The notes under the pieces were generated by a model that ran no database searches, had not been told where the DNA came from, and saw only the letters and a list, made by a program, of their open reading frames with translations. A stretch of DNA of 55,299 nt from Prorocentrum cordatum (Eukaryota). Below are positions 699 through 52,300 of the stretch, piece by piece. The position numbers and the translations under genes were made by a program. How positions within the stretch are numbered: position 1 is the first letter of the stretch; every line of letters begins with the position of its first letter. The stretch is taken from positions 62,001 to 117,299 of the forward strand of contig CAUYUJ010000167.1 of assembly GCA_963575745.1 (NCBI GenBank). The letters run 5' to 3'.

Positions 699-854
699 AG
701 TTGGGCATGTCCCTCCACAGGAGAATTGTTCGAAAAGAGTCAAACAAGTACTATGGGAAGGATTTTTTGACTGCTGTTGACTACTTTGGAGTATGCTTCG
801 ACTATTTTTTTGTTTTTTCGTGCAAGATCCGCCTGTAGGAGGGCATGCCCGACC
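699..854 (+). mobile_element. family A TIR mini-element, copy 1
   Basis: agttgggcatgtccctccacagg ... cctgtaggagggcatgcccgacc with a T-rich interior. Confidence 0.85.
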
Positions 855-2092
855 TAGTGGTCGGGGAGTGGAGGGGAGTGGAGGAGTGAGAGTCGGGGGT
901 CATGTCGGAGTGTGCCCGATATACCAGGCGCGTCTGCGCCTCGGTCGGTTTTTGCGGCCGAGTCGCGGTCGGCTGCGCTCGGTTGGTTCGGTTTGTCAGG
1001 GTTGGTTGTTGCACCGATGATGCACCGCTGTGCCCTTTTGGGCTGCTTGCAGCCTGTCGGACTCGGTCGCTTTCGGTTTCGCTAATGTTTCGGCAGATTT
1101 TTCGGTTGTTCTGTCACCGTAGCCGGCTGAGGAGGAGGAGGAGGAGGAGTAGGAGGAGGAGGAGGAAGATGAGGAGGGGGTAGGGGAGGCGAAGAAGGAG
1201 GAGAAGGAGGGGGGAGAGTCGGGCGCGAGGGGTGAGGGTCGGGGGCGTCCAGGAGGGGGCGGGGAGGACTAGGGGTCTGTGGACATCATGGCCAGGGCCA
1301 TGGTGTCATCCAGATCTCAAAGCTCCCTTTCCTTCTTCTTCTTCTTCTTCTTCTTCTTCTTCTTCGGATCATTGCTTTTCTTCTTCCCCGGCTCCTGTGC
1401 TCGACTTGGTCGATTCATTGATCTTGGCATCGTTCGGATGTGTGCATTTTTTCTCGGCGAGGTCCGTCGAGGAGCATTTTGAGTCATCCAGCTAAGAAAT
1501 GCACGCAAGAAGCCAGAACATGCACGGGGAATGGACGTCCGAGCGATGGCGACTGATGCGTTCAGGAGCCTGCGCTCCACAGCGATCGACTCGGCAAGGC
1601 AGCTTACAACAGGGGGTCACTCCCCGCCACGGAGGAGCTTCGATTCGATCGGCTCGATATGGAAGCCACTCGATCCATCGATCCATCGACTCGACCCAAC
1701 GGTTTCGATCGATCGATCCCATCGATTCGTATCGACTCGCGGGGTGCCCTGGACGGGCATCCGGGTGCCCGTCTGGTGGTCCCCAGAGGTTCCGGCAGGC
1801 CTCTGGGGGCCCCCCGGTGGCCTCCAGAGCCTCCCCCGATCGCCGCAGCGGTTCAAACCTGCATCCCCGCGCACCTCGGGGCCGACGACGGCGGCGGTGG
1901 CGGTGGCGGCGGCGGTGGCGGCGGCGGCGACGGCGGTGGTGGCGGCGACGACATTTGCGACCACGACGTCCACGACGTCCACGGAGACCACGGCGACGAG
2001 TACCACGACAAAGATTGCGACCGCGACTGCCACGACGACGGCGACTGCCACGACGACGACGACGACGACGATCACGACACGGCCCGTGGGAG

Positions 2093-2904: not shown

Positions 2905-3398
2905 CAACCCGGCGGGCTCTGCGCCCGCCCGGCAGCAGGGGCCTCGGCCCCTCCCCCTCCCGAGGAGGGGCGCGGGCGTGCGCCTCGCCCTCTCGGGGGC
3001 GGCAGAGAGGGGGGGGGGGGAGTGCTGGCCAGCGGGGGGGGGGGTGATGGCCAGGGGGGTGAAATGCCAGGGGTTGGACGCCCGAGACCCAGACCCCCTC
3101 GATCCATGAAAAAATCACGACGAGAGGTTTTTCGCTATTTTCGGCCTCTGGGGGCCCTTATTGGCCCTCAGGACCGTCAAAAAACGGCTCGGGATGAAAA
3201 ACCGGTCCCGGGGAATCGGCGCGGATCTCTGGGGGTCGCGTCATGAAAAAATCATGACGTCGGGGGTCTGGGGATTGGCACGGAAAGAGTGGGTAACCCC
3301 GGGAAGTCTTTAGTTTTGCTCTCCCCCCCTCCTGGAGTTCTCGGCGGTGAATCAACTCGTCCCGAAACTCGTCCGCTCCCGAAACCTCTCCTCCTCCT

Positions 3399-4609: not shown

Positions 4610-4698
<89 letters not shown>

Positions 4699-4839
4699 TT
4701 TTTTTGTTTTTGTTTTTTGTTTTTTTTTTGTTGTTGTGTGTTTTTTTCCCCCCCTTCTTTTTTTCCCGAGTTGTCAATAAATTCGCCCGACAGATATTTA
4801 TGTTCCATCTATTGGCCAGGGGACTTCTAAAGACTTATC

Positions 4840-5017
4840 AGGGTTACAATGCCCAACGACAGCTGGTTGTCCCAAGCCAACAGCGGCTGTTGTTGGGCAG
4901 GCGGCCTCCTGCCTCGAATGGGCACAGGCCGCGGCGGCGCGGACAGCGAGCCCTGTTCAGAATGAACAGGAACTGCTGTTGGGCATTGTGCCCATTCTTT
5001 CCGTACCCACTTCGGGC
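4840..5017 (-). mobile_element. family B TIR element (~200 bp); other copies at ~7372-7753, 17200-17412 and 18464-18670 in the opposite orientation
   Basis: TIR gggtacaatgcccaac / gttgggcattgtaccc and a shared interior. Confidence 0.85.
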
Positions 5018-5344
5018 GGGGGGCGGGGACACCGTGGCGGGGGCCAGGGCATCTCCGTGGCGCCTCTTCTGCTTTCGGTGCGTCCCCGACTTCCCCTGGG
5101 CTGCGCACGCGCCGCTGGCCATGATTTGCACCCGCCCCCCCCCCCCCCCCTGGACGCCCCCCTCTTGGGCGCCCCCGACGTGTGCCCCCTCTTGGGCGCC
5201 CCCTGGACGCCCCCCTCTTGGGCGCCCGAAGAGCGCCGACGTGTGCCTCGCTCCTTCCCCCGCGGGCTGCCGCGAGGTGCTCGTCGTGGCCTGCGTCGGC
5301 GGCGCGCACGAGAGGGTGGGGCCAGGAGGGGGGCCCCACGAGTA

Positions 5345-5507
5345 AGTCGGGCCTGTCCCTCTACAGGGGAGATATTCAAAACAGCAACACAAATATTCTG
5401 GGGGTCTGGGGGCGATGTTTCGACGATTTTTGAGCATTTTTGGCATCTGTTTGGACTATGTTTGCTTTTTTCGTCTAAAATCCGCCTGTAGGGGGACATG
5501 CCCGGCC
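5345..5507 (+). mobile_element. family A copy 3
   Basis: ta|agtcgggcctgtccctctacagg ... cctgtagggggacatgcccggcc|ta. Confidence 0.9.
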
Positions 5508-5824
5508 TAACCCCATGAGGTCTCGGCAGGCGGGGGGGGGATTCTCAGAGGCACCCCCGTCTTCTGGGAGGGGGCTGGAGGCTTTGAGGACCCACGCCCC
5601 CTCGCGCTGCGACAAAAATCACGACGTGAGGTTTCTCGCTATTTTCGGCCTCCCAGGGCCCTTCCCCGGCCTCGGGGCCGTCGAACATGACTCATGAAGC
5701 ACCAGTCTCCAGGAAGGGGTCCAGACTTCCGAGGGGCACGTCATGAAACGATCACGACGCCGAGGTTTTGGGGAGCCCCCTGCCCCCTGCCTTCAGGGAA
5801 GGCGCCCCCCCCCCGCTAAACTTA

Positions 5825-5961
5825 GGTCGGGCGTGTCCCTCTACAGGGGGAATATTCAAATACAGTAAGAAGATCGTACGGGGACGATTTTTGAGTACTC
5901 GTTTGGCATTTTGGGGCATTTTTAGAATATTTTTAATTTTTCGCCTAAAATCCTCCTGTAG
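5825..5961 (+). mobile_element. family A copy 4 (3' TIR truncated)
   Basis: Left TIR and interior, ending at cctgtag. Confidence 0.8.
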
Positions 5962-6197
5962 TCGGGGGCGGAAAAGAGGGGGGTGATGACTAGGGGGGGA
6001 TGGATATCATGGCGGGGGCCATGGTATTTCCCCAGATTTCATGGCGCCCCTTCTTATTCCATTACGCCCCTGGCCCCCCCGCTGGGCCGCGCACATGCCG
6101 CCGGTCATGATTTGCACCCCCCCCTCTTGGACACCCCCCTCTTAGCCGCTCCCGATTCACCGAGCGCGTTCCATTACTCGCAAACGGCCTACTCTGA

Positions 6198-6322
6198 AGT
6201 CGGGCGTGTCTCTCTACAGGAGGAATATGCAAAAATAGTTGAATCGTCTGGGGACCATTTTTCGACTGTTTTTGAGCATTTTTGGGATAGTTTTTGACTG
6301 TTTAGGGGCGACAGGCCCGAAC
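6198..6322 (+). mobile_element. family A copy 5, nested in another TIR element (6159-6498)
   Basis: Left TIR, ggggaccatttt motif, degenerate right TIR. Confidence 0.75.
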
Positions 6323-7050
6323 GTCTGCCTCGATGTAGTGGATCGCGAATCCGCCTCGGCGGATCAGGGCCATCGCAACCCCCCTCGGCGGATCCAGCCC
6401 GTCAGCAGGGCCGCCGAATCAGTACTTGCCCTCACTTGTTGGGTGGGTTCTCTGAAGACCACTGTGTGTTACTTGGCGAGTGGTGGAACGCGCTTGTCTG
6501 TTCCAAGACATCCAACGGGACCCTCCCCAGGACGCACAAGAGCAGCCGGCAGGCACGAAGAAGACCGGGGCGCCCTCTCCGAACCGACCTCGATCTTGCA
6601 CCTCGGTCCGGCCGCAAGGGCTTCTTGCGGCCAGCGGGCGGTTGGCGACGGAGGCCGGGAGCAGCAGCACGGGGCGGCGCACCTGCACGGCAGTACGCCG
6701 CGGGGGGCGTGGCCCCACCGGCCGCCGCGCTCGCGCTGGCCCGCACGGCGGCCCTGCACGCGCGCGTGCCGCTGCCGCGCACTCGGCCGGCGACGGCTTC
6801 GACGACCGCTCGGCCAGCAGCCCCAGCGCGCGCGCGTGGGCACCCTGGACCTCAGTGGGCCCCGGAAACGGCTGGCTGGTCCACCACGGGGGGGCATCAC
6901 ATTAAGGATCTGCAGCGTCGCTAAGATCATCATCCTCACCGTCGTTAGCATCATCACCGTCATCACGCAACCAGCAGTTGTCATCATCGTCATCACCATC
7001 ATCGTCATCACCATCGCCATCATCGTCATCACCATCGCCATCATCGTCGC

Positions 7051-7401: not shown

Positions 7402-7576
7402 CCAAATCCCTTATTAATCGTCCCCCGGGTCCGGTTTATTAGATCGCTTTCTTTGGATTGGAGCTGAGGGGGTCTGGTTTACTAAGGCGCCCCATCGAAG
7501 AGGGGGTCCGGAATATTAGGTCGCATTTGGAGGGGGGTCCGGTTCTTTAGGGGGGGTCGATTAATAAGGGATTTGG
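7402..7576. mobile_element. TIR element nested in a family B copy
   Basis: ccaaatcccttattaatcg / cgattaataagggatttgg. gggta occurs on both sides. Confidence 0.8.
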
Positions 7577-8393
7577 GGTACAATGCCCAGCAGCAGTTCC
7601 CGTTCATTTGGAACAGGGCTCGCCGTCGGTGTCGCCGCGGCCTGTGTCCATTTGAGGCAGGAGGCCGTCTGCCCAGCAGCGGCCGCTGTTGGTTTGGGAC
7701 AGCATCTGTTGTTCGGCATTGTACCCGTTTTTCCGTACCCATGTCGGGCGTCCAAATGGAGGGTCTTTTGACCTCCTGTTTGGTCTCTTGGAGGCCTCTT
7801 GGAGGCAGTGCTCGCCCGTCTTGGTGGCCCTGACCGCCCCTCCGTGAGCGGTCTTGGAAGCCCTGTAAGCGTCCGGCCGCCCAGGGAGCTTTGGGAAAGG
7901 GGGGTGGCGCATGCGACCGGGTTTCGGGGAAACGTGAGATTCGAGTGCGCCGGAGCTCGAAATGGCCAACGCTTTTTGACGCACGCGTCCTGGATCTTGG
8001 CTCGTGGGACGTTTGCAGCTAGAGCTTGCGCCAAATCTCAGATTGGATTCCGTCATTTCCGCGGTGGCCCCGTCAGGCCAACCCGAGTCCCCCGAACCCG
8101 ACTTATTGCGTTTTCCCGACTGTTGCCTGAGCGTTGCTCGGGCGTGTGCGTTTTTTCGTCGAGGCCAGCGCCTGGAAATCTGGACCATCTTGGAGTAGTT
8201 TGCGTCACCTTGAGAAGCAGCGTGCGCGAAACCAAGCAGCGCACGGGGAGTGGACGTCCGAGGAGCGACGGCAGGTCTTTTGCTCGTCAAGTTGTGGCCT
8301 CGCCCTCGCCTGCCCGCAGGGTTCTTGCATTGTTTCCGGCACGGGGTGCGACCCTGCATCCCACGCTGGAGTATTTTCCCTCAGCCCGTTCCC

Positions 8394-9744: not shown

Positions 9745-9801
<57 letters not shown>

Positions 9802-15574: not shown

Positions 15575-15674
15575 NNNNNNNNNNNNNNNNNNNNNNNNNN
15601 NNNNNNNNNNNNNNNNNNNNNNNNNNNNNNNNNNNNNNNNNNNNNNNNNNNNNNNNNNNNNNNNNNNNNNNNNN
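15575..15674. other. assembly gap (100 N) inside PPKL intron 4
   Basis: Run of N. Confidence 1.
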
Positions 15675-16224
15675 AAGGAGGAGGAGGAGGAGGAGGAGGA
15701 GGAGGAGGAGGAGGAGGAGCAGCGAGAGGAAGCGAGTAGGAGCAACCAATTCTGGAGGCCTCGGCTCTCGACGGAAATGGGAGGGATAGGGCGGTGACAA
15801 AACCTCTCCGAAAATCAATGAGTATGGCCTCTCCGGGCCTTCTTGAGAGTCCTTGTAGGGCTCTTTTGACCCGTCTGAGGGCCCCCTTTGGCCGTCCTTA
15901 GGCGTTCTTGGGCCGTCTTGTGGGGCTTGGGCCGTCTTGGGGCGCTCTTGCAGATCCGTCGTGCCGACCCCCCCCCCTCCTCCAGCGCATCTACAGAGGG
16001 CCACTCTGTAAAAGCCGCAAACGGGGGATGCGTATCTGGGTGGCGACCCCCCCCTGGGACCCCGCCCCCACGGGACCCCCCCCCCCCGGCGGGGAAGGGA
16101 TCAAAGGGAAGGGGCTTACTTGGACGCATTTACGACGTTGCTCAGTTTCGTTTTGGTTGGCGCGCTTGAGGAGGAGGGGGGGGGGGGGCTCAGGGAAAGG
16201 GCGGGTAGCGCCACACGCCGACAG

Positions 16225-16295
16225 GGTCGGCGGATCTGTTGACGATTCTTTGAGTTGTCTGCCAGATATCCGCCTGTGGGGGGACATGCCCGACC
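16225..16295 (+). mobile_element. family A copy 6 (internally deleted)
   Basis: ggtcgg ... atccgcctgtggggggacatgcccgacc. Confidence 0.7.
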
Positions 16296-16977
16296 CGGCA
16301 CGAGCCCTTCGGAGAGCCAGACCTCCGACGCTTCGATGCCTCTCTGGCCGCTGCGCTTTTTTCCCCCCCACATGTCGGCCGCGGGGTGCCCTCTGGTGGG
16401 TCCCGTGGCCCATCAGGCAGGGGGTGCCCTCTTGGTGGGTGTCCTCTTGTGGGTCCCATGGTCCCTCTTGTGGGTGCCCTCTCGTGGGTGCCCTCTCGTG
16501 GGTGCCTCTTGTGCTGCCGAAAACAAGCCTGGTCCTGGGGGCGGGGTCGAGAGGTTTCGGGGCCCAGAGTCGCGGAAAGATCACGGCCGTCGGCCTGGCA
16601 CGCGGTACCTTCAGGCTCGCGCTCGGGCCACTTTGCAGGCACAGCCCCGACCTTGAGAGCGCCGCGCGAGGGTGCAGTGCCACCCGACGCCGCCGCCGTC
16701 GTCGTCGCCGTGGTGGTCTGTCTCGTAGGGGAGAGAATAGCATGAGCATTCACTTTCGGAGCTCAGCGCGAATTTCTTTGCTCGGAGCTGGCCCGCGTCC
16801 CTGGCGCGCGGAGCCGTCGTCGCCGTCGTCGTCGTGGCCGTCGCCGCCGGCGTCGCCGCCGTCGTCGTTCTCGCCGCCGCCGCCGCCGTCGCCGTCGTCG
16901 TCGTGGCCGCCGCCGTCGTCGTCGTCGTCGTGGCCTGTCGCCGCCGTCGCCTGCCCGGCCGCCCGCGCGCGCGCGAG

Positions 16978-17090
16978 CGGACGAGCGGCACCGCCTGGGA
17001 TCCGGTGGTGGTGAACCAGCGGCCGCCCACGCCGCCGCGGGCGGTGCGCCGCCCCAGCCGTCGGGGGGGAGGGGGGGAGGAGCCGCCCCG
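16978..17090 (+). CDS. PPKL: PPKL C-terminal exon RTSGTAWDPVVVNQRPPTPPRAVRRP... (3' boundary uncertain)
   Basis: Conserved C-terminal W...RPPTPPR motif of PPKL/BSL proteins. AG at 16976-16977, phase 0. Candidate GT donors at 17091 and 17095. Confidence 0.8.
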
Positions 17091-17143
17091 GTGGGTGTCG
17101 GGCGCGCCGCGTGCTCCGCGCCGCCCTCCTCGTGCGCCACGGG

Positions 17144-17517
17144 AGCCGGGCCTGTCCCTCTGCAGGAGGGATGTTCAAGAATAGGGACAAAGAAAGTTTT
17201 GGACGACCGGAATGGGCATGGAAAGAATGGGTACAGTGCCCAACAGCGGTTCTTGTTCATTCGGACCAGGACTCGCTGGCCACGCCGCCGTGGCCTGTGT
17301 AATTACACTGGAGACAGGAGGCCGCCCGCCCAACAGCGGCCGCTGTTGGTTTGGGGCAACATTTGTTGTTGGGCATCGTACCCATTTTTTGGGGACCCAT
17401 GTCGGGCGTCCCAAAAAGTCGGGGTACCATTTTTGGAGCATGATTTCAGCATTTCTGGGTATCTTTGTTTCCTGGACTGTTCGTCCAGAATCCTACTGTA
17501 GGGGGACATGCCCGACC
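17144..17517 (+). mobile_element. family A copy 7, interrupted by a family B element (17200-17412)
   Basis: A halves flank a complete B element. Confidence 0.85.
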
Positions 17518-17947
17518 TAACGGAAGACGGGTCCTGAGGAGGGAAGTGCGTCCTCGTTGTCGTTGTCATCGTCGTGAGCGCTGTTGTCGTGGTGATCGTT
17601 GTGATCGCTGTGATCGTTGTGGTCGTTGTTGTCGTTGTGATCGTTTTGTTCTCGTTGTCATCGTTGCGATCGTTGGGATCGTTGTTATCGTTGTGCTCGT
17701 TGCTATCGTTGTCACGGTTGTGGTCGTTGCTCGTCGTCGTGATCGTTGTGGCCGTTATCGCTGTGATCGTTGTGATCGTTGCTATCGTTGCCAGCGTTGT
17801 TACCGTTATCGTTGTGATCGTGTTGATCGTTATCGTTGATCGTTGTTCTCGTTGTTACCGGTGTCCTGCGGGCAAACGGGTGCCGAGGCTTCTCGCCGCT
17901 GTCGGGACCTCGGGGCCCTCCACGGATGGGCCCCGGGGCTGGTCTTG

Positions 17948-18013
17948 CGTCGGGCACGCCCCTCCACGGGAGGAAGACTCAACAACAGTTGAACCTAGTC
18001 TGGGGGCGAGGTC

Positions 18014-18051
<38 letters not shown>

Positions 18052-18114
18052 GGCTGTCTCTGGCAATCTCCAGTCTCTCTTCCGAATCCCGCCCGCAGGA
18101 GGGCATGCCCGCCC
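17948..18114 (+). mobile_element. family A copy 8, with internal (AT)n
   Basis: gtcgggcacgcccctccacgggagg ... cccgcaggagggcatgcccgcc. Confidence 0.75.
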
Positions 18115-18422
18115 CGACCCTGGCCCCCGGGGGAAGGCCCCCGGGCCCAGGACCCGTGCCCCTCGGGACCCGCCCCCCCCCCCTCCTGCCCGTGCCTTCG
18201 GCCTGGCGCGCGGCGCGCGGCCCCGTCGGGGGCCTCTCGCCGCTCCGCCGGCGAGGCAGGGCGGAGCCGAGCTCTCGGCGCCTCCGCCCCCGCCCCCGCC
18301 GCTGCCCCTCGGGCGGGGGGGGGGCGGGCAGCGGGCGCTCCGCCTGGCCCGCGGCCAGAGGCCATTGGCCAGCCCGTGCCGTGCCGGCTCCATCCCCCGC
18401 CCCCGCTCGCGGCGAGGGCGAG

Positions 18423-18426
18423 GTGA
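18423..18426 (+). CDS. PPKL: possible PPKL terminal coding bases (G + TGA stop)
   Basis: cgag|G TGA completes the Arg codon if donor 17091 is used. Inference only. Confidence 0.3.
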
Positions 18427-19399
18427 GCCACGGGGAGGAGGAAGAGGGAGGACGAGGCGGCACGGACGAAACGGGTACGGAGAGACTGGGTGCAATGCCC
18501 CCAGCAGCAGTTCTTGTTCATTCTGGGCAGGACTCGCCGTCCGCGCCGCCGCGGCCTGTGTCTGCTTGAGACAGAAGGCCGGCTGCCCAACAGCGGCCGC
18601 TGTTGGCTTGGGACAACATTTGTTGTTGGGCATTGTACCCATTTTTTCCGTACCCATTTCGGGCGTCCAAAAAGAAGACCAACCGGATCGCCGAGAAAAG
18701 GAGAACGGGGACGTCCTTCTCGTCCTTGTCGGGCCGGCCGGCTTTCTCTACGCCTCTTCCCTCGCTTCGGGTGTTGCTAGAAGTGCCCCTTGCCCAAGGT
18801 GCCCCCAGCGTTTCGCTCCGTTTTGGAGCCCCTGGGGCCCTCTGGGCCTCGCGAGGGGTGCCCTGGAGGCCGTCCGGGCCACCCTGAGAATCCTGGGGGT
18901 ACCTTGGGCCAGGGGTACTTCTAGCACCCCCCGATCTACCGTCATGGACGACTGGCGATTGACGCTTGGTAGTGCGCTGCTGGCGCACGGCCAGCGCCGC
19001 TCACAGCACGAGCACCACCAGGGGCGCCAGCCGTCCCTGGTCTGTGGCAGCGGTGGTGAGCGGCAGGCCCATCACTGAGGCCAGCAGCTGAACTTTTCAG
19101 CACCGTTTTGGGGCCCCCAGGGAGGCTCACGCGGCACGCGCCGAGATCGACCATCTTGGGTCTCAAGAGCCAGGGCGCCGGATCTTGCAGGATCCTGCAG
19201 GGCCGGGGGCGCATTGACCCGGGTTTGGGTGCAGGTTCCTGCAGGATCCTGCTGGGCCAGGGTCGCACTGACCCGGGTTTGGGTGCAGGACCCTGTATGA
19301 TCTTGCAAGGCCCGACTGACCCGGGTGTGGACTGACCCGGGCCAGAGGGTCCCCGACCATCGACGCTCGATCCATAGCCCTGCTGTTGCGCTCACCCTT

Positions 19400-19633
19400 C
19401 AAGCAGTGGCGAAGCGTCCTGGCTCGCCTATATGCCCACCAAATAATGTTATAAAACCTGTTGCGGTTTACACGAGATGTTCTTAGAACATGTATGGCTG
19501 AGTCTGGTTTGTTTTAACACATCGGGTTCATGTTCTAAGACAACTGTTTGTTATGAGAACATGTCTCGCTTCTAGGGACATGTCGTGGCAGGCCTATAAA
19601 AATGCCAGGACGGTCGGTCCCTGCTCAAACCCT
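19400..19633 (+). mobile_element. family K element with tgttctaagaaca sub-repeats; second copy at 45143-45380
   Basis: Two colinear copies with cgtcctggc / gccaggacg inverted ends. Confidence 0.75.
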
Positions 19634-20344
19634 GGGCATTAGGAGAAGCATACACCTTAGGCGATGCTTAAGAAAACTTAATTTTTCGGCCAGAGTCTCG
19701 ATTATTCTTAATGTTTCAATGTAGATCCTAATATCTGAATAGACATTCTGGGTTTTTATTTAAGTTCTGAGACTATGAATTTCTGAACCCATGATTTCTC
19801 AAGCATTTCGCAGGGTGTAGGGCACGGAGAGCAAGCGCGGCCCCAGAGGCCAGCTCTTGCATCCGTGCCGCCGCTCCAGCGCTCTGGCGCTCGCGTGGCG
19901 TGGATCGGCCACACGCAGAGAGGGGGTATTCTGGGCCTCCTCCTCCTCCTCCTCCTCCTCCTCTTTTCCTCCTCCTCCCCCTCCTCCTCCTCCTACTCCT
20001 TCTCCTCTTTTCCTCCTCCTCCTCCTCCTCCTCCTCCTCCTCCCCCTCCTCCTCTCCTCCCCTCTTTCCTTCTCTTTTCCTCCTCCTCCTCCTCCTCCTC
20101 CTCCTCCTCCTCCTCCTCCTCTCAGAGAGCTGGGGTCGTAGCAGATGGGTCGGAGGATCGGGCCGCGTCGCCGATGCATCGACGATGCGGCTCGAGGCGG
20201 AAGCCGAGTTTCTCCACGTCGGCGTCGCCGATGCGTCGCCCACGCCGGCGATGCATCGCCGAGACATCGCCAATGCGTTGGCGATGCGGCGCGACCCTCC
20301 GACCCCATTTGCTCGGACCCTATCAGGGAGGCCTCCAGGTATGG

Positions 20345-20465
20345 GGGAGGGGGGAAAGACCTCTCAGAAGCACCCCTGCTTCTTAGAAGGCGCGGGCCTT
20401 ATCCACAGATGTCAGGCCTGCGCCTTCTACGAAGCAGCCTCTCTCTGAGAAGCCTTCCCCCCTCC
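20345..20465. repeat. hairpin element; second copy at ~44340-44455
   Basis: cttagaaggcgc.ggcc...ggcc.gcgccttcta.gaagcagcc. Confidence 0.7.
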
Positions 20466-21535
20466 CCCTGCCCCCCTCGTGCTCGCCGGCAACTTGCAGT
20501 CGAGCAGGGTCATAAGGATGAGTCACTCTCCAGGGGTACCCTTGCAGCCTCGCCTCTCGGCCAGACCTCACAGTAAAGGCGGGTGGTCTGATTTTTGGGA
20601 GGTCTGATTTCAGCTGAAGGATTTTGAAGGATCCTGCTGAGCCAGGGGCCGTACTAACCCGGGCTCGGGTGCAGGATCCTGCAGGATCCTGCAGGATCCT
20701 GCAGGATTTTGCAAGGCCTGACTGACCCCGGTCTGGATTAACCCAGGTCAGAAGATCCCCGACCGAAGATCGAAGAGGAAACACGTTGCTTGACAAACGC
20801 TAGACGCTTCGCGCAACACCAGCCCATCCAGAAGCGTTGCCCAGACGAGTTGCCCTGATCAGACGTCGTACCCCAAGAGGGGGAGGATGGATGAGGAATC
20901 GGATCAGGAGCCAGAGGAGGAGGATGATGATGATGAGGAGGAGGAGGAGGAGGAGAACGAGGATTCGGAGGAGGATAATGAGGAGGAGGAGGAGGAGGAG
21001 GAGGAGGAGGAGGAGAGATATGAGGATGAAGGAGGAGGATCATGTTGTACAAAACGAGGAGGACAACAGGGATGTGTAGGAGCATGCAGTGGAATAACGG
21101 GGAAGCCGTCGTACCCAAGAGGGGGAGGAGAGAGGCGGAATCGTCGTCGTCGTCGTCGTCGTCGGAGAAGGAGGAGGAGGCGGAGGAGGAGGAGGATGAG
21201 CAGAATGGCCAGAGACCTCGTGGATGCTTCTCGGAGTCTCCTCGGATGTCTCCTGAAAGTTTCTTGGAGTCATCTTTGGCGGTCCTGGGGATCTCTTGGA
21301 GCGTCTTGGGGGGGGGAGGCCTCTTGGTGCCTTCCAGGAATCTCCTGGAAGCTTCTTGGGGGCCTTTTGTGGGCCCTCCTGGGTGCCTCCTGGGGCCCTC
21401 GTCGGGCACTCTTGGAAGCCTTGGGGCCCATCTTGGAAGAGATTGGCCAAAGAAGGGGGGGTCCTCGATTAGGCCCCCCCCGGAGGCCAACATCAGCCCA
21501 CAACCTTTTTAAACTCAACGCATCTTGCCCTCTAG

Positions 21536-24238
21536 CCGATGCCTTCTTGGACGCTCCAGTTGGTCGTGGACCCCGCCGCCTGGGTCCAGGGGATGGGGCA
21601 GGGGAAGGGGTCAAGACACTCTCCCCGCCCGCAAGCCGTCTCGCTCACTCCCACCCGCCCTCCCTGTACACAAGTAGCACCCGGGCCGCAGCATGTTCAG
21701 CGTTTTTCTTTTGGATCGACAGCTAGTGGGAACCGAAATAGATCCCATAGGCGCGCTCAGGCCGAGGCCAAGGCCGCCAAGGTCGCGTCTGGGCTTCAGA
21801 CTGGGCCGCGAGCCCTGGGGTGAGGTGCACCACGCGTGCCAGGCGCCACGCGCGCTAGGCGCGCCAGGCAGGCACCCCTGGGGCCCAGGCGTGCCAGGCA
21901 TGCCTGGTACGCCAGATGCGCCACGTGCTCCACGTGCGCCATGCGTGCCACATGCTCCAGCCGCGCCAGGTGCGCCACGTTCGGGGCACGCGCAGAGTGT
22001 GCCAGGTGCGTTCTCGCACGTGACAGTACACATCGGGAAATATGTCGGCCCCCACTCCTTGTTGAAAACAGTGCGAACTTGCGGCGGGGTGGCCATTATG
22101 GTGTCTGGCAGGCCTGCGCTCAGCAGGCAATACTCCAGCACCCCCGCCGTCCTTGTCAAAACCAATGCAAAGTGATCGCGGAGTGCCATCGCATGATCCA
22201 GATTTTGCCGCGAAGTGCACTTTCTATGGTTTTTCGACATAGATGGTGGCCTTCTCACAGCAGGCAATCTTCGCCCCCCCTACGTCCCTGTCAAAAAAGA
22301 ATATAAAGTGCTCGCGCCCTACCAGGCATGATCCAAGATTTTGTCGCGAAGTGCAAACCATTTTATTTCTTGACAGGGCCGGTGGGTGGGGGGGGTGGCA
22401 TTGGTCCTGGTTGGCTGCCGGTCGCTTGGGAGAGGGGGTGTTCTTTAACACAGGAAAATGTGATCAATGCTTCCCCGAAGGGAAAGAAGGGGAAGATGGA
22501 AGAGGAAACGCTCTAAACCACTCACGCCCACAGGGCTGATAGGATTTACATCGTCGGAGATCTGGGCAAGGGTCTTGCATCCTGATCCCGTACCCTTTGA
22601 TCTGGACGTATTGTATGCTCGGGTTTTGGATTGGGCAGGCTCCCCAAGCTGGGACTGGCTGTGGGTTGCTGAGGTGGCCTAGCAGAGGTTTCGGCCAGTA
22701 GAAAAGTTGGGATAAAGGGGCCTCCTCGTGGCCACGGCTGGACGTGGATGGAAGCAATTGTCAGTTTCGACCCTGGGAAAGGTTCGGGGACCGCTTTTGA
22801 GAGGATTTGCCGGCGTCCTTCCCGCTTGACAGATTTTCTTGCGGCCCCTCCAGTGCAGACCCGCTCAAAGCGACAAAGCTCTAATAGGACCCAATTCTTT
22901 TTTCAAAAGTCGTGCAGAAGTCCACAGTGTCAAACCCTGGTTGGCCCCAAGCTCGCAGCAGCGACCCCCAGTGGGCTCCCCAGATGCACCAAGGTGAGTG
23001 TGTTGTAGCGTTTTCGGCTACCATTCGGCTTGTTCATCGACTTTGAGGGCTATGCCTCGGGCACGTTCCTCTGCAGGAGGAAAATTGAAACTTTCACAAT
23101 TGTCTGGGGATGCCTTTGCTATGTTTTTCTTGTGTGTTGATAATTTCCCAATATCTTTTCACTATTTTAATATTTTCTTCCAAAGTCTGTCTGTAGGAGG
23201 ACATGCCCGACCTGAGGCTATGTTGAGGCCACTTCGGGGCTCAAGATTGGCAACACGCGTTTTTTTGTGCGAGAGAGACGCTGCGTCTGCGCGTGCGCTT
23301 CTCCGCGACCGCTCCATACGCCTTGTCGGCGTCACCCCAACCTACTAATACTATGTGTGCTTCGTCCCCTCCAGGGGCGACCCGCGCACCGAGAAATCTT
23401 AGAGTATATGCGTCGTGGCGGGCGCTTTCTGGCCACGCCGCTCGGGAAACGATATGCTTCAAGACTTGTGTATCATATGTTTGGGTCGGACGCGCGCCTC
23501 CAAGGAGGACATGTAGTACTAGTATGTCTCCGTTCGTATCATTGCTGTGCCCGGGGAAGCTTTCCATCGTAGGGGGTAGGGGAGAGCGCGGCGCACCTCT
23601 TTTCTCTTGCCGAATAGCCGTGGTCTGAAGAGCGAGGGGGTCAATGTTTTTCGGGAAGAGCCTGGGCTGAGCGTCCATAGCACCTTCTATGAGTGGTCGC
23701 TGCCACGGGGCGATAGATAGCTGCTGTTCGTTACACGGATCTCTTCTGCCCTGGCCGCGGGCATGCAGAGAAGATTTCACCGAAGTTGACCACTGGGAGC
23801 AAGATCCGATCGCATCCCTTGCGGGGACCCAGGGTTCTCGAAGGGCGGGGCTAGGGTTAAGTCGGGCCTGTCCCTCTACAGGGGGAAATGTTAAAGAATA
23901 GTCAAACAATAGTCTGGGGAATCTTTTTCCGCCAATTTTTGTCAATTGTTTTTTTTTTTTTTTTGTGTGTGTGTTTTTTTTTTTTTTTTTTAATTTTTGT
24001 TTTTCCTCCAAAGCCCGCCTGCAGGGGGACATGCCCGACCTAAGGCCAGGACCGGGGCAAGTCGTGCCAGAGGGTTCTGGAACGCCCTCCGAGCATCCCG
24101 GAGCGCTCCAGAACGGCTGGCGCCCGATGCATCCTCCAGAACCGCCAGATCTCAGAGATACCAGCCTTATCCTTGTCTGATTTCGTCCCAGTTCTTGCTT
24201 CGTCTTATCATAAAGCCTGGACCACTACATTCAGTGAG
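21536..24238 (+). CDS. gene 2 (hypothetical protein), 5' exon cluster: 21536-21583, 21761-21781, 22027-22100, 22560-22673, 22718-22781, 22833-22887, 22918-22993, ~23246-23272, 23375-23488, ~23769-23832, ~24149-24238
   Basis: Unique-sequence islands between repeats, bounded by AG and GT/GC/GA. 22560-23488 joins in phase: IWARVLHPDPVPFDLDVLYARVLDWAGSPSWDWLWVAE-GPPRGHGWTWMEAIVSFDPGK-...LPRCTK-IGNTRFFVR-GRPAHREILEYMRRGGRFLATPLGKRYASRLVYHMFG. Some other joins are unresolved. No family recognised. Confidence 0.6.
23055..23212 (+). mobile_element. family A copy 9
   Basis: Both TIRs. Flanks tgagggctatg / tgaggctatg. Confidence 0.85.
23860..24040 (+). mobile_element. family A copy 10
   Basis: ta|agtcgggcctgtccctctacagg ... 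cctgcagggggacatgcccgacc|ta. Confidence 0.9.
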
Positions 24239-29072: not shown

Positions 29073-29125
<53 letters not shown>

Positions 29126-29678: not shown

Positions 29679-29722
<44 letters not shown>

Positions 29723-30381
29723 CTGGTGGTGGTGGTGGTGATAGTAATGACAATGTTGCTGGCGGTGGTTGTCGTGGTGGTGGTGGTGATCACGATGAGG
29801 GTGATGGTGGTGGTGGTGCTGGCGGTGGTGGTGGCGGTGATGATGATGATGATGCTTGTGATTCTGGTGGTGTTGTTAATGATGATAATGCTGATGCTGA
29901 TGCTGATGGTGATGATGAAGCTGATGATGACGATGCTGATGCTGACGATGATGCTGATGATGATTATGGTTATGATGATGGTGGTGGTGGTGGTGATGAT
30001 ATTGATGATGCTGATGATCATGACGATAATGATGACGAGGACTAGGACGAGGATGAAGTGAAGGAGGAGGAGCAGGAAGATGAGGCTGGTTTTGGTGGTG
30101 GCGGTGGGCGCGGCGGCGGTGATGATGGTGATGTTGATGACGATGCTGATGTTGAGGATACTGATTATGCTGATGATGTTGCTGCTGATGATGATGCTTA
30201 TGATGACGATGATGCTGATGATGCTGATGCTGCTGCTGATGCTGATGTCGATGATGCTGATGCTGTTGTTGATGACGTTGATGATGATGCTGATGCTGAT
30301 TCTGCTGATGATGATTCTGATGCTGATGATGCTGATGACGATGATGCTGATGATGATGATGCTGTTGATAATGATAATGAC

Positions 30382-30412
<31 letters not shown>

Positions 30413-30420
30413 ATGATGAC

Positions 30421-30456
<36 letters not shown>

Positions 30457-30523
30457 AATGCTGACGACGACGGCGACGACGACGACGATGCGGAGGAGGA
30501 GGAGGATGATGATGATGATGACG

Positions 30524-30562
<39 letters not shown>

Positions 30563-30745
30563 CTGCTGCTGATGCTGATGCTGATGCTGATGCTGATTGC
30601 TGATGCTGCTCCTCATGATGATGCTGCTGATGCTTGTATGATGATCTGATGATGTGATTGATGAGTGACGAGATGATATGATGATGATGATGATGATGCT
30701 GATCGATGATGATGATGATGATGATGATGATGGATTATGAGATGC

Positions 30746-30780
<35 letters not shown>

Positions 30781-30787
30781 CTGATGC

Positions 30788-30821
<34 letters not shown>

Positions 30822-30861
30822 ATGATGATGATGATGCTGATGCTGATATGATGATGATGAC

Positions 30862-30934
<73 letters not shown>

Positions 30935-30988
30935 CTGATGCTGATGCTGATGATGGTGGTGGTGGTGGTGGTGCTGCTGCTGCTGATG

Positions 30989-31060
<72 letters not shown>

Positions 31061-31075
31061 CTGTTGATGATGCTG
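28990..31075. repeat. (GAT/GCT/GGT)n microsatellite; similar tracts at 32324-32750 and 42330-43610
   Basis: Direct inspection. Confidence 0.95.
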
Positions 31076-32037
31076 GAGCTCGTTTGGGCAGTCTTGAGGC
31101 TTTCTTGGCCTCCTGTGAGGCAGTCTTGCGGGTCTCCTAGGGCCCTCTTGGGCCGTCTTGGGGCCCTCTTGCGCTGGCTTGGGGCTCTCTTGGGCCGTCT
31201 TGGGGCCCTCTTGGCCGCGTAGTGGGTGTGCGGGGGCCGTCTTGGCGCCGTCTTGGCGCCGTCTTGGGCAGTCGAAGGGCTTTCTAAGGCCGTCTTGGGT
31301 CCCACGGGAAGCCCTCTTGGGCCGTCTTAGGGCCGTTTTAATCCCTCGTAAGTCATCGTGAAGTCTTCTTGGGCCGTCTTGAGCTGACGGCAGCCCGAAA
31401 AGGCGAGAGTGCTAGAATCATTTAAACAGGGAAATCAATGATTCTGGCTTCTTCGGACATGTTGGAGGTCCTCTTGGGGCCATTATGGGTCCTCTTGGAG
31501 GCATCTTGGGTCGTCTGCGATCAATATTCGGCCATCTTGGGGCATCTTGGTGTCTTGGGCCGTCTTCGAGGCATCTTGGGACATCTTGGTGTCCTTGGTT
31601 GCATGCACGGGCCATCTTGGAAGCTCGGGACGCAGATCCATCGTTTTAAAGGGTGGATCGTGGCTTGGGAAGCCCTGGAGTGCCTGGGAGCAGCGCGGGA
31701 ATGCGGGAAGTGCACGATCCTTGGGCGGCTGCGCGCGGTATGAGGGGTCTGGGAGCTAACAGCCATGTGGGACGTGCACAATCCTCGAGCGGACGTGAAC
31801 AGCCATGCGGGAAGCGCACTATCCTCGAGAGGGCACGCGTGTCATGGGGGACTGAGCATCAGCGGCCATGCTGGGAGTGCACCATCCTCGAGCGGTCACG
31901 AGGGAAGTGGCCTCGGCAACGGGGGTCGATGCATGCAGCAGTCTGCGTCGAGGGGGGGCTCCCTTGCCAGAGTGCAACAAACAACCATGCCAGGCAGCCC
32001 TTGGCATGTGGCGGGCCTTTTTTGCTTTCTGTCGGAG

Positions 32038-32365
32038 CAGAAGGCCGAGGATGCAGATGCAGATGTGGTGACGACGAGTATGACTGGCAGTCTTGGGGGG
32101 GGGGGCTACGGTGAGGATGGTGATCCCGATGGCAAGTGAGATTGATGCGATGATGCGAACTGGAAGTGAGCGTTGCCGGGAGTGCGCCCGCGGTTCCTCG
32201 CGTGCGCGTCGCGGGTGGGTGGGGGGTGAGGGGGTGTACTGTGCGTGTTGCAGGAACGCGTCTCAAGCTCAAGTGGGGAATGCGGCTTCCCGAACGCATG
32301 CCCTGATGCGTTGCCTCTCATACATGATGATGATGATGCTGATGATGATGATGATGATGAGGATG

Positions 32366-32405
<40 letters not shown>

Positions 32406-33648
32406 GGATGAGGATGAGGATGATGATGCTGATGATGATGATGATGATGCTGATGATGATGATGATGCCGCTGCTGATGCTGATGCTGATGCTGATGCGG
32501 ATGCTGATTATGATGCTGATGCTGTTGTTGATGACGTTGATGATGATGATGCTGATGCTGATGCTGATGCTGATGCTGATGCTGATGCTGTTGATGATGC
32601 TGATTGTGATGATGCTGATGATGGTGATGCTGATGTTGATGCTGATGCTGATGCTGATGCTGATGCTGTTGTTGATGATGCTGATGCTGATGATGCTAAT
32701 GGTTGCTGGTGCTGATGATGATACTGATGATGCTGATGGTGATGGTTGCTGGTGCTGTGCCGCTGCGCGCCTGGGCACCCAGCTCCGCACGCCCAACGCC
32801 CGCCAGCGAACCGTCGAGAAGCACACCGCGTGGCGACCCTTCGACCGCCGCCCAGACGGCACTCACACGCGACATGTCGTCGTCGCCTTTCCTCGAGGAG
32901 CTTGCAGTGGCGTGTTTGAGCCGTCTTGGTCGGTATCGTTTAACCGATCCCCACCCCCATCCCCATCCCCTTCGAGACCCCCACCAAACTACTTCCCCAG
33001 TCGGGGATACACCCCTCGAGACCCGAAGGGAACGGCCTATATCCCCATCTCGGGGGGGTAAATCGGCCTGTGGTGCCCAGGCCACGCCGCTGGAGATGGG
33101 GATCGGTTAAACGATACTCATTCGAGGTTCCCTGTGGGCCCTCGGTCGTCTTTTGGCCCTCGTGGGCCGTCTCGGGGCCTTTGAGGCCGTCTTGGGGCCG
33201 TTCCGGCAGTCTGGGGGGTATCTTGGGGCCGCGCTGGGGCCTTGATCGACAGTGTCGGGTTCCTCCAGGGGTCTCTCAGGCCAGCTTGGAGCTCCCTTCA
33301 GGCTCTCTTGGACTGTCTAGGGGCCCTGTTGGGGCTCTCAGTGGGCCCTTTCAGGGCCCTCGATGACCAGAAGTGGATCGATAGTCGACGGAAGAGCGTG
33401 GAAAGCAGAAACGATGGAACAACCTCAGGCACATCGATGGTCTCGGTTGCTCGAGGCCGTCCTGGAGAGCGTCTTGGGGGTGCGTTGGAGCCCCTTCGAG
33501 GCCTCTTGGGTGCTCTTTGATCAAAAGCTGGGCCGCCTTGGTGGCCGTCTCGGCCGTCCTGGAGATCTCGGCGAGCGCAGGAGAGAGCCCCAGGGAGACG
33601 TCCGTGCCGCCCACGGCGCCTTTTGCAGGCATGGCCGATGCACGCAAG

Positions 33649-33688
<40 letters not shown>

Positions 33689-34239
33689 CGTGTGTGCGTG
33701 TATACGTGTGTGCGTGTGTGCGTGCGTGCGTGTGTATATATATATATATGCATATGTATATATATATATATATATTATGTGTGTGTTTGGTGCGCGTGCG
33801 CTTGCGCGTGCATGCGTGCGTGCGTGCGTGGGTGAGAGAGAGTGTGAGTGTGTGTTGCCCCGAATGGTCACATGCTGGAGCGGACCGCCTCTGCCTCGCC
33901 GACGAAGATGAACAGTTAGTGTGTGTGTGTGTGTGCGTGTGTGCGTGTGTGCGTGTGTGCGTGTGTGCGTGTGTGCGTGTGTGCGTGTGTGCGTGTGTGC
34001 GTGTGTGCGTGTGTGCGTGAGTGCGTGTGTGCGCGTGTGCGTGCGTGCGTGTGTGCGTGTGTGCGTGTGTGCGTGTGTGCGTGTGTGCGTGTGTGAGTGT
34101 GTGCGTGTGTGCGTGTGTGCGTGTGTGCGTGTGTGCGTGTGTGCGTGTGTGCGTTTGTGTGTGTGCGCGTGTGTGTGTGTGTGTGTGTGTGTGTTTGTGT
34201 TTGTGTGTGTGTGTTTGTGTGTGTGTGTTTGTGTGTGTT

Positions 34240-34272
<33 letters not shown>

Positions 34273-34276
34273 TTGT

Positions 34277-34337
<61 letters not shown>

Positions 34338-34365
34338 TGTGTTTGTGTGGCTGTGTGTGTGTTTG

Positions 34366-34396
<31 letters not shown>

Positions 34397-49300: not shown

Positions 49301-52300
49301 CCTCGGGGCCTTCTCGGAACTCCTCAAGCCGGAGACCTGCCCCGCTCGGCATGCTCTCCGTAGCCTCTGGCTGAGATGCGCGTCATCACTCGGAGAGGTG
49401 TTGGCCCTCCCGCCCGTTCCCCAAGCGTGCCCTTCGGCCTCCACCTCCTCCTCTTCTTTGGCTCCCCGAGCCCGCAGCAGATGGTGCTAAGCTTAAGCCG
49501 GGCATGTCTTTTTGCAGGAGGCAAAATCCAAAATTATCAAGACATAGTTTGGGGACGATTTGTGTTTTAAATCTTCGACAGAGCCCGTTCTGTGGTCTCT
49601 TGGAGGGGGGGGTTGGAATCGGACCCCCCCTAGATGGAAGGGGGGGGTTCGAACCCCTCCCTCCCCCCCTCCCTCCCTTGATGGACGGGGTTCGACCCCC
49701 TACTTCTCCTCTCTCCCTCTCCTCGGGCCAGCGCCGGCGTCGGCGGCGTCTGGCGGCGGCGGCCGGAGCGTCGATGAAGACGACGACTTCCTTTTTGCCA
49801 CCGTGCCTTGGTTTTGGGTCAGAGTACTAATGAATGCCTCTTGGGGTCTCGTCCGAGGGCTCTCGGGGGCCTCTGAAAGGCATTTGTGAAGCCTTCTGGG
49901 CGCCTCTTGAGCGTCTCTTGTGGCCTCTCTGAGGTGGTGGTGGTGGTGGTGGGCTGTGGTGGTGGTGGTGGCGTTGGGGATTGTGGCGGTGGTTGTGGTG
50001 GTGGTGGTGGTGGTGTGGTGGTTTGTGGTGGTGGTGGTGGCTGTTGTGGTGGTTGTGGTGGCCGGTTGTGGTGGTGGTAGTGGTGGCGGTGGTGGTGGTG
50101 GTGCGGTGGTTTCTGGTGGTGGTAGTTGTGGTGGTGTTAGGTTTAAGGTGGTGGTGGTCGTGGCGGTGGTGGTGTGGTGGTTTGTCGTGGTGGTTGTGGT
50201 GGTGGTAGTGGTTGTGGTGGTGGTGGGTTGTGGTGTGGTGGCGGTGTGGTGGTTGTGGTGGTGGTGGTGGTGGTTTGTTGTGGTGGTTGTTGGTGGTGGT
50301 GGTGGCTGTGGTGGTTTGTGGTGGTGGGGTGGTGGTGGTGGGGTGGTGGTGGTGGTGGTGGTGGTGGGTTATGGTGGTGGTGGTGGCGGTGGTGGTGGTT
50401 GTGGAAGTGGTAGTTGTGGTGGTGGTTTTGGTCTGGTGGTGGTGGTGGTGTGGTGGTGGGTTGTGGTGGTGGGTTGTGGTGGTGGTTATGGCGGTGGCGG
50501 TGGATGTGGTGCTGGTGGTGGTGGTAGTGGCGGTGGTGCTGGTGGTGGTGGTGTGGTGGTTTGTGGTGGTGATGGTGGTGGTGGTGGTGGGTTCTGCTGG
50601 TAGTAGTGGTGGTGGTTGTGGCGGTGGTGGTGGTGGTGTGGTAGATTGTGGTGGTGAGGGTAGTTGTGATGGGTTGTTGTATTGGTGGTGGTGGTGGTGA
50701 GCTGTTGTGGTGGTGGTGGTGGCTGTGGTCCACCCCCTGGTTCGACACGCGACGCCGAATGTTCCCAAGGCAAGCGCCCGTGAAACGCGCTCTCTCAAAT
50801 ATAAAGTTTGAGCAGTTCTGGGTTATTTCTCATTGGTCATCCAAAATCCGCCTGTAGGAGGAGATGCCCGACCTGATGTTCAGAGGAGCGTGGCTGGCGA
50901 GGGAGAGAAACACAACGAGGAGGTGGACACGCCCAGGGGCGCGGCGAGGGACGAGGCTGCCCGTGGAAAAACGTGGGCTGCCGAAGGGGGGGAAGAGCCG
51001 TGGCAGTGGACTGCGTGTGGAACCCCCATGACGGCTTCCGTCCGGCGGGCGCTTGGGCGCCCCAGGCACGAGGGGGCATAGGGTTTGCACGGTTTGATTC
51101 GCAACAGGTTTGCCAAGGGGGAAGATCAGTGACAGCGGATTTGCGAAAGAGCTCCTGACGGACTCCGTCAGGCGGGCGCCTGGGCGCCCCAGGCACGAGG
51201 GGACAACAGGCTTGCCTCCGACCCTGCCCTGGTCGACTGCACGGCACACGAACCGACGTGGCATCCATCCGCAACACAAAGTTTGCGTCGGACGGCCGCC
51301 CAGGCACGAGGTTGGTGGGACGAGTGTCTCAGCGTTAGAAAGTCCAGGGTTCGCTAGGGACTGGTTCCCTTTCAAAACGGCCGGAACCTTCTCGAAGCCT
51401 TGAACAAAAACCACAGTGACAGGGTTCCGGGAGGGTTTTCGGAGGGTTCTGGGAGGGTTTTGAAAGGGTTTTCGTGGTTTTGGGGGGAAGCCAGTCCCGA
51501 GCGAATCCTGGGCTTTCTAACCTTAGCGACCCCTACCGATGGAGTGGAACAGCGGGGGGCCGCGATGCCTCCCGCCTGGCTTGGACACGGGCGTCCGTGG
51601 ACATCTGCAGGCACAGCTCCTGGAGATATGCGGATAGCGCGGGCTATTGCTCGAAGAAGAAAAAGCCACATGAACATGAATTTTTGGCGCTCCGCTTATG
51701 ATGCTCCAACCCACTTTAGCCTTGATCACCCGGAATTTTGCGCCCAAAGCAGTACCGAAACTCAAGGGTTTTCACGTGTCGGGCCCAGGGAGACACTCGC
51801 CCGACACTGTTTCGACACTCTTTTGACATCTCTCCTGGTGCTCGAAAGTGTTTCTGGGATGTGGTCCGTAAGCAGGATGGGAACAACAGAACGCTACGCG
51901 CGGATGTTTGGGATCCGCGCCGGGGCCCCCCCGGCGGACCTTCCGGCGCCGCCCCGGGCGCCGGGGAGGGGGGGCCCCGGCGCGGAGCCAAGGAGTCCGC
52001 GCGGAGCGCCAGAAGCTTACGTTCGTGTGGCTTTTGCCGCTTCGAGTTGTGCCGGCCAGGCAGCCAGGAACGGCCCATGGAGACCTGGCGTTCAGTCGGG
52101 CCTGTGCCTCTGGCCAAAAATAATATGGGGACTATTTTTGACTATTTCTGGGCATCTTTGGAGTACTCTTGGGTTTTTTTTTAATTCTTCGTCCAAGCTC
52201 CACCTGTAGGGGGACACGCCCGACTTAAACCCAGCGGAAGTTTCAGAGCGGCCCGACTTAAATTCGTGGGACCACTGGGATCGCGAGGCTGTTCGACCAT

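Follow-up and report, generated by a model that had tools for sequence, protein, structure and literature searches.

Why should the copies of a short inverted-repeat element, scattered over 52 kb of repeat-rich DNA, all point in the same direction? This question is raised by a 55.3-kb stretch of DNA (here called the window, i.e., the whole stretch that was analyzed; ~60% G+C, with a single gap of 100 N at 15575-15674), which is crowded with trinucleotide and other microsatellites and with short palindromic units resembling miniature inverted-repeat transposable elements (MITEs). A preliminary description of the window had singled out one repeat, family A, as having 16 copies, all in the sense orientation of their host genes and with an intron-like anatomy, and had proposed that it represents a candidate system of Introners, i.e., elements that generate introns. 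Our analysis identified family A as a MITE, a cut-and-paste DNA transposon of the non-autonomous kind, and showed that its copies are old, independent insertions and that strict same-strand polarity is its one unusual property. The same-strand observation proved largely right and statistically sound, and the Introner interpretation is reasonable, if unproven.

Family A copies share a single strand

Family A is bounded by terminal inverted repeats (TIRs) of ~26 bp (TTAR-GTCGGGC.TGTCCCTCT.CAGG), the core running from GTCGGGC to GCCCGAC. Allowing up to 3 mismatches, the TIR pattern matched the window 26 times, compared with 0.98 matches expected and a largest count of 4 in 100 shuffles. We extracted eight copies with both TIR ends, one of which carries a nested insert, and used the seven that align end to end as the seed of a profile. 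This profile recovered 18 matches on the + strand at E <= 3.2e-8 and one further match at 8.7e-6. Its matches on the - strand all scored 19.7 bits or less and each sat on a + strand copy, and are therefore cross-matches between the two TIRs. Thirteen copies retained enough interior to be oriented (core starts at 700, 2685, 5346, 5826, 6199, 17949, 23056, 23861, 25937, 27257, 27544, and 52095, plus the copy at 17145-17516), and five further pieces are end fragments (16237, 36854, 41300, 49497, and 50805). The 16 copies first reported agree with this tally, given that two of the fragments (49497-49571 and 50805-50872) match different, complementary stretches of the profile and could be the halves of a single copy with 1.2 kb in between. 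Likewise, the pattern count, the profile matches, and the conserved ends bear out the designation of family A as a TIR element. Leaving aside nested inserts, the element measures 130-230 bp, has no coding capacity, and is represented by 16-18 pieces in the window. A scan for the exact TIR pattern yielded 30 chance loci in metagenome contigs, none of which fitted the family A profile, and 0 loci in viral contigs.

The asymmetry of the interior consists of a central motif, TGGGGACGATTTT, together with an excess of T (AT skew of about -0.2 to -0.4 in most copies; 36 runs of at least four T vs 10 of A within 11 full copies). An arrow had previously been read from an A-rich part, the central motif, and a T-rich part in succession; the motif and the T-rich 3' part are indeed present, but the A-rich-then-T-rich order defines no arrow, because a palindrome of this kind reads alike on both strands. 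We therefore removed the TIR columns from the 13-copy alignment and searched both strands with the resulting interior-only profile, which gave 13 matches at E <= 3.4e-10, all on the + strand, and a best - strand match of E = 0.064. As the + matches of this profile follow from its construction, its informative part is the absence of any - copy. Thus, neither the seven-copy profile nor the interior-only profile revealed a - strand copy in the window. Moreover, all five end fragments score higher on the + strand, and three of the five show interior motifs in + order. The two-sided probability of finding 13 of 13 copies on the same strand is 2.4e-4, and it is 0.008 when neighbours are collapsed into 8 clusters. 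The earlier statement that all copies are gene-sense holds insofar as every orientable copy lies on one strand (13/13), but no gene was found on either strand. Other families occur in both orientations, as previously noted (1:3 for family B, a palindromic MITE, and 1:2 for a repeat with ~190-bp arms, family C), and the bias therefore belongs to family A. The individual pieces are listed below, with the two sides of the target-site duplication (TSD) and their number of matching positions where relevant.

696-857, + strand: copy 1, full length; 4-nt terminal extensions on a core of 700-853; TSD 688-695 / 858-865, GAGTCGGG / TGGTCGGG, 6/8
2681-2907, + strand: copy 2, full length, with an expansion of the poly-T interior; TSD CCCTGCGG / CCCGGCGG, 7/8; lies between inverted ~190-bp arms at 2381-2569 and 3070-3274
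5342-5510, + strand: copy 3, full length, nearest to the consensus; TSD CCCCACGA / CCCCATGA, 7/8; left end GTAAGT
5822-5961, + strand: copy 4, right TIR truncated at ~5961; adjoins another palindromic MITE-like unit (5962-6155)
6195-6326, + strand: copy 5, short; core 6199-6322, right TIR degenerate; TSD 4/8
16237-16298, + strand: 5'-truncated copy, interior remnant and right TIR; leans toward + (24.7 vs 17.0 bits)
17141-17520, + strand: copy 7, full length, with a nested family B MITE (17204-17414)
17945-18123, + strand: copy 8, more diverged than any other; right TIR altered; contains a (TA)n insert
23052-23215, + strand: copy 9, full length; direct repeat TGAGG(G)CTATG of 10-11 nt on both flanks, not in the usual register
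23857-24043, + strand: copy 10, full length, with long poly-T; TSD GGCTAGGG / GGCCAGGA, 6/8
25933-26081, + strand: copy 11, full length; no in-register 8-bp TSD; 21-nt direct repeat further out (25896-25916 / 26085-26105)
27257-27372, + strand: copy 12, 5'-truncated, lacking the left TIR and the A-rich part
27540-27703, + strand: copy 13, full length; 55-nt flanking direct repeat (27480-27534 / 27704-27754)
36850-37135, + strand: left TIR and A-rich part (36854-36907), then a G-rich insert of ~170 nt; weak central-motif remnant at 37077-37130 (E 0.29)
41300-41386, + strand: 5'-truncated copy, interior remnant and right TIR; abuts the 3' end of a 161-bp satellite array
49493-49571, + strand: left part with left TIR, A-rich part, and central motif (profile positions 2-76); may form one copy with 50805-50876, from which it is separated by 1.2 kb that include (GGT)n
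50805-50876, + strand: right part with T-rich interior and right TIR (profile positions 89-159)
52091-52228, + strand: last copy, full length but lacking some of the A-rich part through an internal deletion; TSD ACCTGGCG / ACCCAGCG, 6/8

Family A is a MITE with an 8-bp target-site duplication

Four conserved bases lie outside the core on either side (left, TT[A/C]A; right, CT[A/G]A) and, jointly with it, form the inverted repeat TTAR-GTCGGGC. Pairwise identity over the 22 core TIR bases is 0.77 on the left and 0.76 on the right, and in predicted RNA folds the paired TIRs form a stem of 22-26 bp in either polarity. Of the 11 full copies, 5 have an in-register 8-bp TSD in which six or more of the 8 positions match, compared with 2 of 110 mismatched left/right pairs; the TSDs of the remaining six full copies are decayed or irregular. 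At TSD positions 3-6, across all ends, the leading bases were C (20/29), T (16/29), A (14/29), and G (14/29), i.e., the target of family A is weakly palindromic, with a CTAG-like core (NNCTAGNN). Because this core is palindromic, the target gives no polarity. Two other delimitations of the element, namely, a 3-bp TAA duplication and a TIR longer by 10 nt with AG as its terminus, were dropped in favor of the 8-bp TSD with its CTAG target core; it is owing to this core within the TSD that AG often stands 10 nt beyond the right core end.

Long direct repeats flank three copies only, measuring 21 nt (25896-25916 / 26085-26105), 55 nt (27480-27534 / 27704-27754), and 35 nt (661-695 / 863-897). They far exceed the usual 8-bp TSD and are separated from the element by a few filler bases. 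The 35-nt repeat lies within a locally repetitive, GGGGAG-like stretch.

With its TIRs and fixed-length TSD, and as a short, non-coding element present in multiple copies at independent sites, family A is a non-autonomous cut-and-paste DNA transposon. The combination of TIRs, a fixed TSD, and a palindromic target bears the marks of a DDE-type transposase and, hence, of insertion without built-in polarity. TSDs of 8 bp are typical of hAT elements, and other superfamilies make 8-bp TSDs too. Family A shares with hAT-type MITEs the TIRs, the 8-bp TSD, a weakly palindromic target, a length of 130-230 bp, and the lack of coding capacity, whereas its terminal bases show no obvious fit to the hAT end consensus; a Pfam search of the open reading frames (ORFs) of the window revealed no transposase or autonomous partner. 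We know of no uniform polarity among hAT-type MITEs.

Family A copies are old, independent insertions

Pairwise identity among the copies ranges from 0.50 to 0.75 (mean, 63%), with no tight local clade; only the copies at 5346, 5826, and 6199 are mildly closer to one another (0.71-0.74). Past position 12, flank identity was 0.269 on the left and 0.284 on the right, relative to 0.261 +/- 0.012 for random sequence. Similarly, local alignment of 150-nt flanks gave scores of 10.4 and 9.9 (control, 10.1), flank columns past the TSD held no consensus (0.0-0.2 bits in most columns), and the TSDs differed from copy to copy. These unrelated flanks and differing TSDs demonstrate independent insertions rather than a local duplication clade. 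A single clade of that kind had been named beforehand as an outcome that would speak against the Introner proposal; flanks, TSDs, and pairwise identities all show that the copies do not form one.

Base skew, rather than genes, suggests the sense strand

To locate genes on either strand, we compared with Pfam 205 ORFs of at least 100 amino acids (aa; from a total of 300) and 233 ORFs of 55-99 aa (from a total of 309), after dropping low-complexity ORFs. Just 1 of these 438 stop-free ORFs (at least 55 aa) reached the cut-off, in a search that would miss shorter exons or lineage-specific genes. The sole match was to Collagen (28.0 vs 27.2 bits), caused by a 41-residue Gly-X-Y run in the - strand ORF 21614-22279, and is probably compositional. 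Periodicity of third-codon-position G+C (GC3) and codon-position scoring over the window picked out only trinucleotide microsatellites, and none of the ORFs had a protein-like amino-acid composition (best log-likelihood, 13.5 bits). Comparison of ORFs 27938-28408 and 53147-53863 with a large protein collection (near lengths only) returned nothing or one low-complexity match. Searches of the window for Rfam families, tRNAs, and relics of the dinoflagellate spliced leader were likewise negative. As for exon-like flanks, open frames across reconstructed empty sites were as frequent on the - strand as on the + strand, and the DNA between neighbouring copies consists of other MITEs, satellites, and microsatellites, with nothing exon-like. 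Copies 9 to 13 had each been described as the core of a separate intron; this is not borne out, in that no exon was detectable beside the copies.

The + strand nevertheless has a distinct base composition. When family A was masked, its AT skew was -0.133 and was negative in 11 of 11 full 5-kb bins (in one of them, only -0.004), runs of at least five T outnumbered those of A (71 vs 29), and T exceeded A in 17 of 21 other MITE-like units as well. Such a persistent skew points to a single direction of transcription or replication throughout the window. In other eukaryotes, introns are known to carry more T than A on their sense strand, and the base skew (T>A on the + strand) is the only indication suggesting that the + strand is the sense strand. 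We found no paper testing such a sense-strand skew in dinoflagellates, and nothing usable in the literature on strand asymmetry in dinoflagellate gene arrays or on MITE orientation bias in introns.

In two public DNA runs, used as contigs, word depth was in the thousands over most bins of 16100-36099, which means that most of the DNA in this interval belongs to repeats of high copy number in the genome of origin or that of a close relative; the bins holding family A copies had a high word depth in both runs. Both runs consist of short, low-coverage contigs dominated by repeats. Joints between family A copies in them were considered as splicing and rejected, as they reflect other genomic copies.

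Proposed intron-like anatomy of the element

Two features of the element ends had been taken as intron-like. A left end that makes a good 5' splice site (GTAAGT or AG/GT) is present in the two copies for which it had been named, but in only 2 of 14 left ends; the others begin G[TC]CGGG. A T-rich tract ending in CTGYAG/G does occur in the sense polarity, but the motif belongs to the TIR and therefore has a mirror image, CTCTRCAG/G, in the left TIR, which provides an antisense counterpart. More specifically, the acceptor-like motif is carried by 10 of 11 copies in the sense reading and by 8 of 11 in the antisense reading, with an upstream pyrimidine content of 0.68 and 0.59, respectively. A G[TCA]...AG pair that would excise exactly the element plus one TSD, as happens in described Introners, is available in 3 of 9 copies on the + strand versus 1 of 9 on the - strand, and the element termini are CTAA/TTAA rather than AG. 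We have therefore filed family A as a MITE and Introner candidate, not as an Introner member. The components of the Introner interpretation that stand are the TIR element, its independent insertions, and a strand-linked polarity; orientation-specific splice sites at the ends were not found.

Possible causes of the uniform polarity

A strand-linked cause, i.e., either transcription-linked selection or strand-coupled insertion, is needed, because neither chance, nor local duplication, nor an asymmetric target can explain the uniform polarity. We tentatively favor, at a probability of roughly 0.45, that family A is an ordinary cut-and-paste MITE surviving in one polarity within a co-directionally transcribed block. 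Accordingly, the whole 52-kb stretch would be transcribed in the + direction, as judged from its base skew, like the long co-oriented gene arrays with multi-kb introns of large dinoflagellate-type genomes. The chemistry of insertion would carry no arrow, and a strand-distinguishing factor acting over at least 52 kb would set or filter polarity. The survivors would be those insertions in which the T-rich strand of the element becomes part of the transcript, matching the strand's own skew, whereas the opposite polarity would place several A-runs per copy in the pre-mRNA and would be removed by selection. The copies may thus be orientation-filtered passengers of long introns or transcribed spacers, rather than the makers of each intron, which, with multi-kb introns and copies every 3-4 kb, is the simpler account; members elsewhere in the genome could still act as Introners. 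Several points weigh against selection of this kind. No transcript, exon, or gene was found, the direction of transcription being read from base skew only, and the one Pfam match at the cut-off (Collagen) is on the - strand, whereas family A is on the + strand. For intronic transposons, the orientation filters known from other genomes amount to moderate biases, not to 13 to 0. Furthermore, we identified no reason for antisense copies to be harmful, and both the acceptor-like motif and the TIR hairpin occur in both polarities. The dinoflagellate type of the genome is likewise conjectural, being suggested by base composition and repeat load.

A true Introner family, in which each copy, or many of the copies, created the surrounding intron, and in which the element is spliced in sense via signals at or near its ends and persists in exons only when inserted in sense, would also account for the uniform polarity, and we consider it unlikely, albeit worth weighing. 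The TIRs and 8-bp TSD are as in dinoflagellate Introner-like classes with 8-nt TSDs, a T-rich tract precedes CTGYAG/G in sense, exact removal of the element plus one TSD is more often possible on the + strand (3/9 vs 1/9), and the 22-26-bp TIR stem would bring both ends together. However, exon-like sequence was not detected beside any copy (the 1 ORF of 438 at the Pfam cut-off is probably compositional, and the best ORF composition scored 13.5 bits), open frames across empty sites are equally frequent on both strands, and MITEs, satellites, and microsatellites rather than exons separate neighbouring copies; 6 of 9 copies are not exactly excisable, the element ends in CTAA/TTAA and not AG, and the acceptor-like motif appears in both polarities. 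It is less probable still that polarity is set at insertion, whether by integration or gap repair coupled to transcription (R-loops, non-template strand) or to the direction of the replication fork, or by local re-insertion that keeps the polarity of the donor. A ratio of 13 to 0 exceeds the selection filters known from other genomes, the bias is specific to family A, the flanking repeats of 21, 35, and 55 nt with filler at three copies hint at non-standard repair, and copies 3, 4, and 5, which lie within 1 kb, are among each other's closest relatives (0.71-0.74). In contrast, TIRs, a fixed 8-bp TSD, and a palindromic core are the signature of a symmetric transposase dimer, for which, to our knowledge, no polarity has been described; the 35-nt repeat sits amid locally repetitive sequence and may be older than the insertion; and beyond copies 3 to 5, neighbours are not closest relatives (0.56 for 27257 vs 27544; 0.50 for 17145 vs 17949), which argues against local hopping. 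Very improbable is an ancient tandem or segmental duplication of a one-copy unit that has diverged beyond recognition, or plain chance. With copies 63% alike on average, equally old flanks would be hard to recognise by BLAST, and the TSDs of different copies are somewhat alike (null pairs average 2.65/8); yet the two TSDs of one copy match far better (5/11 at 6/8 or more vs 2/110), flanks past the TSD show no consensus and random-level identity while the TIRs keep 0.76-0.77, and chance would have to accommodate the two-sided probabilities given above (2.4e-4 for 13/13; 0.008 for 8 clusters).

A bolder conjecture, which we regard as a long shot, is that family A is a polarity-locked transposon. 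Either its integration would be strand-coupled (directed by transcription or replication), or antisense copies would be purged so fully that the arrows mark transcription over tens of kb. On either account, polarity would be expected to flip exactly at the strand-switch boundaries of co-oriented gene blocks. In sense, such an element might be spliced as a self-contained mini-intron, i.e., it would be an Introner family that also populates pre-existing introns.

Relation to known systems and significance

Dinoflagellate Introner-like elements include classes with 8-nt TSDs and one-strand or biased polarity (Roy et al., 10.1101/2020.10.14.339549). By description, rather than by sequence, family A resembles classes 3, 6, 8, and 10 of Polarella glacialis in that report, in being a short non-autonomous element with an 8-bp TSD, many dispersed copies, and a polarity bias, and its host DNA likewise resembles a large, repeat-rich, GC-rich dinoflagellate-type genome. 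In the classes as described there, the element supplies one splice site at its extremity (a terminal AG) and a GHN6 target supplies the other, so that the exon is restored exactly. Family A, in contrast, ends in CTAA/TTAA, has a target core of CTAG and not GH at position 1, and is exactly excisable in 3 of 9 copies. Many Introner families across eukaryotes are described, in a broader survey, as having TIRs or TSDs and as recruiting splice sites from the TSD in various ways (PMC9860276). A red-tide dinoflagellate genome has 59.7% G+C, a mean gene length of 24.5 kb, and a mean intron length of 4.7 kb, and "Introner elements", counted there by a pattern search for inverted and direct repeats at intron ends, make up 2.4% of introns (PMC10666404). 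That setting of inverted/direct-repeat elements in the introns of a repeat-rich, multi-Gb genome with ~60% G+C looks comparable to the window; unlike the present analysis, that report, in the portion available, gives counts and no family consensus, and the accessible part of its supplements holds no match to GTCGGG or CCCGAC.

If polarity strictly follows transcription, family A would offer an inexpensive way of reading the direction of transcription from sequence alone in giant dinoflagellate-type genomes with poor annotation, and also a natural experiment on what pre-mRNA tolerates. If it creates introns, it would extend the known Introners by a family that combines TIRs with an 8-bp TSD and differs in splice geometry; if insertion itself sets the polarity, it would be a novel case of a DDE-type element that chooses its strand. 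The window itself shows a well-defined MITE with a robust, unexplained same-strand bias, and nothing more.

Other repeats in the window

Family B is a palindromic MITE of ~180-210 bp, with copies at 4842-5018, 7576-7756, 17204-17414, and 18467-18671 that share 80-86% identity; it occurs in both polarities, and its copy at 17204-17414 is nested in family A copy 7. The ~190-bp repeat is present at 2381-2569, 3070-3274, and 5571-5774. The first two of these form an inverted pair (91-96% complementary), i.e., a foldback-like composite that encloses family A copy 2, and the third sits between family A copies 3 and 4. A satellite array of ~20 units of 161 bp spans 37651-41271 and is broken by (TCA)n at 39257-39662; its unit holds short inverted motifs resembling MITE ends. 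Very long simple repeats, namely, (GAT)n of ~2 kb (29038-31072), (ATG)n of 1.3 kb (42334-43611), (GGT)n of 0.8 kb (49933-50722), and a poly-T tract of 137 nt (4611-4747), give rise to long spurious ORFs of His, Ile, Met, and Val runs.

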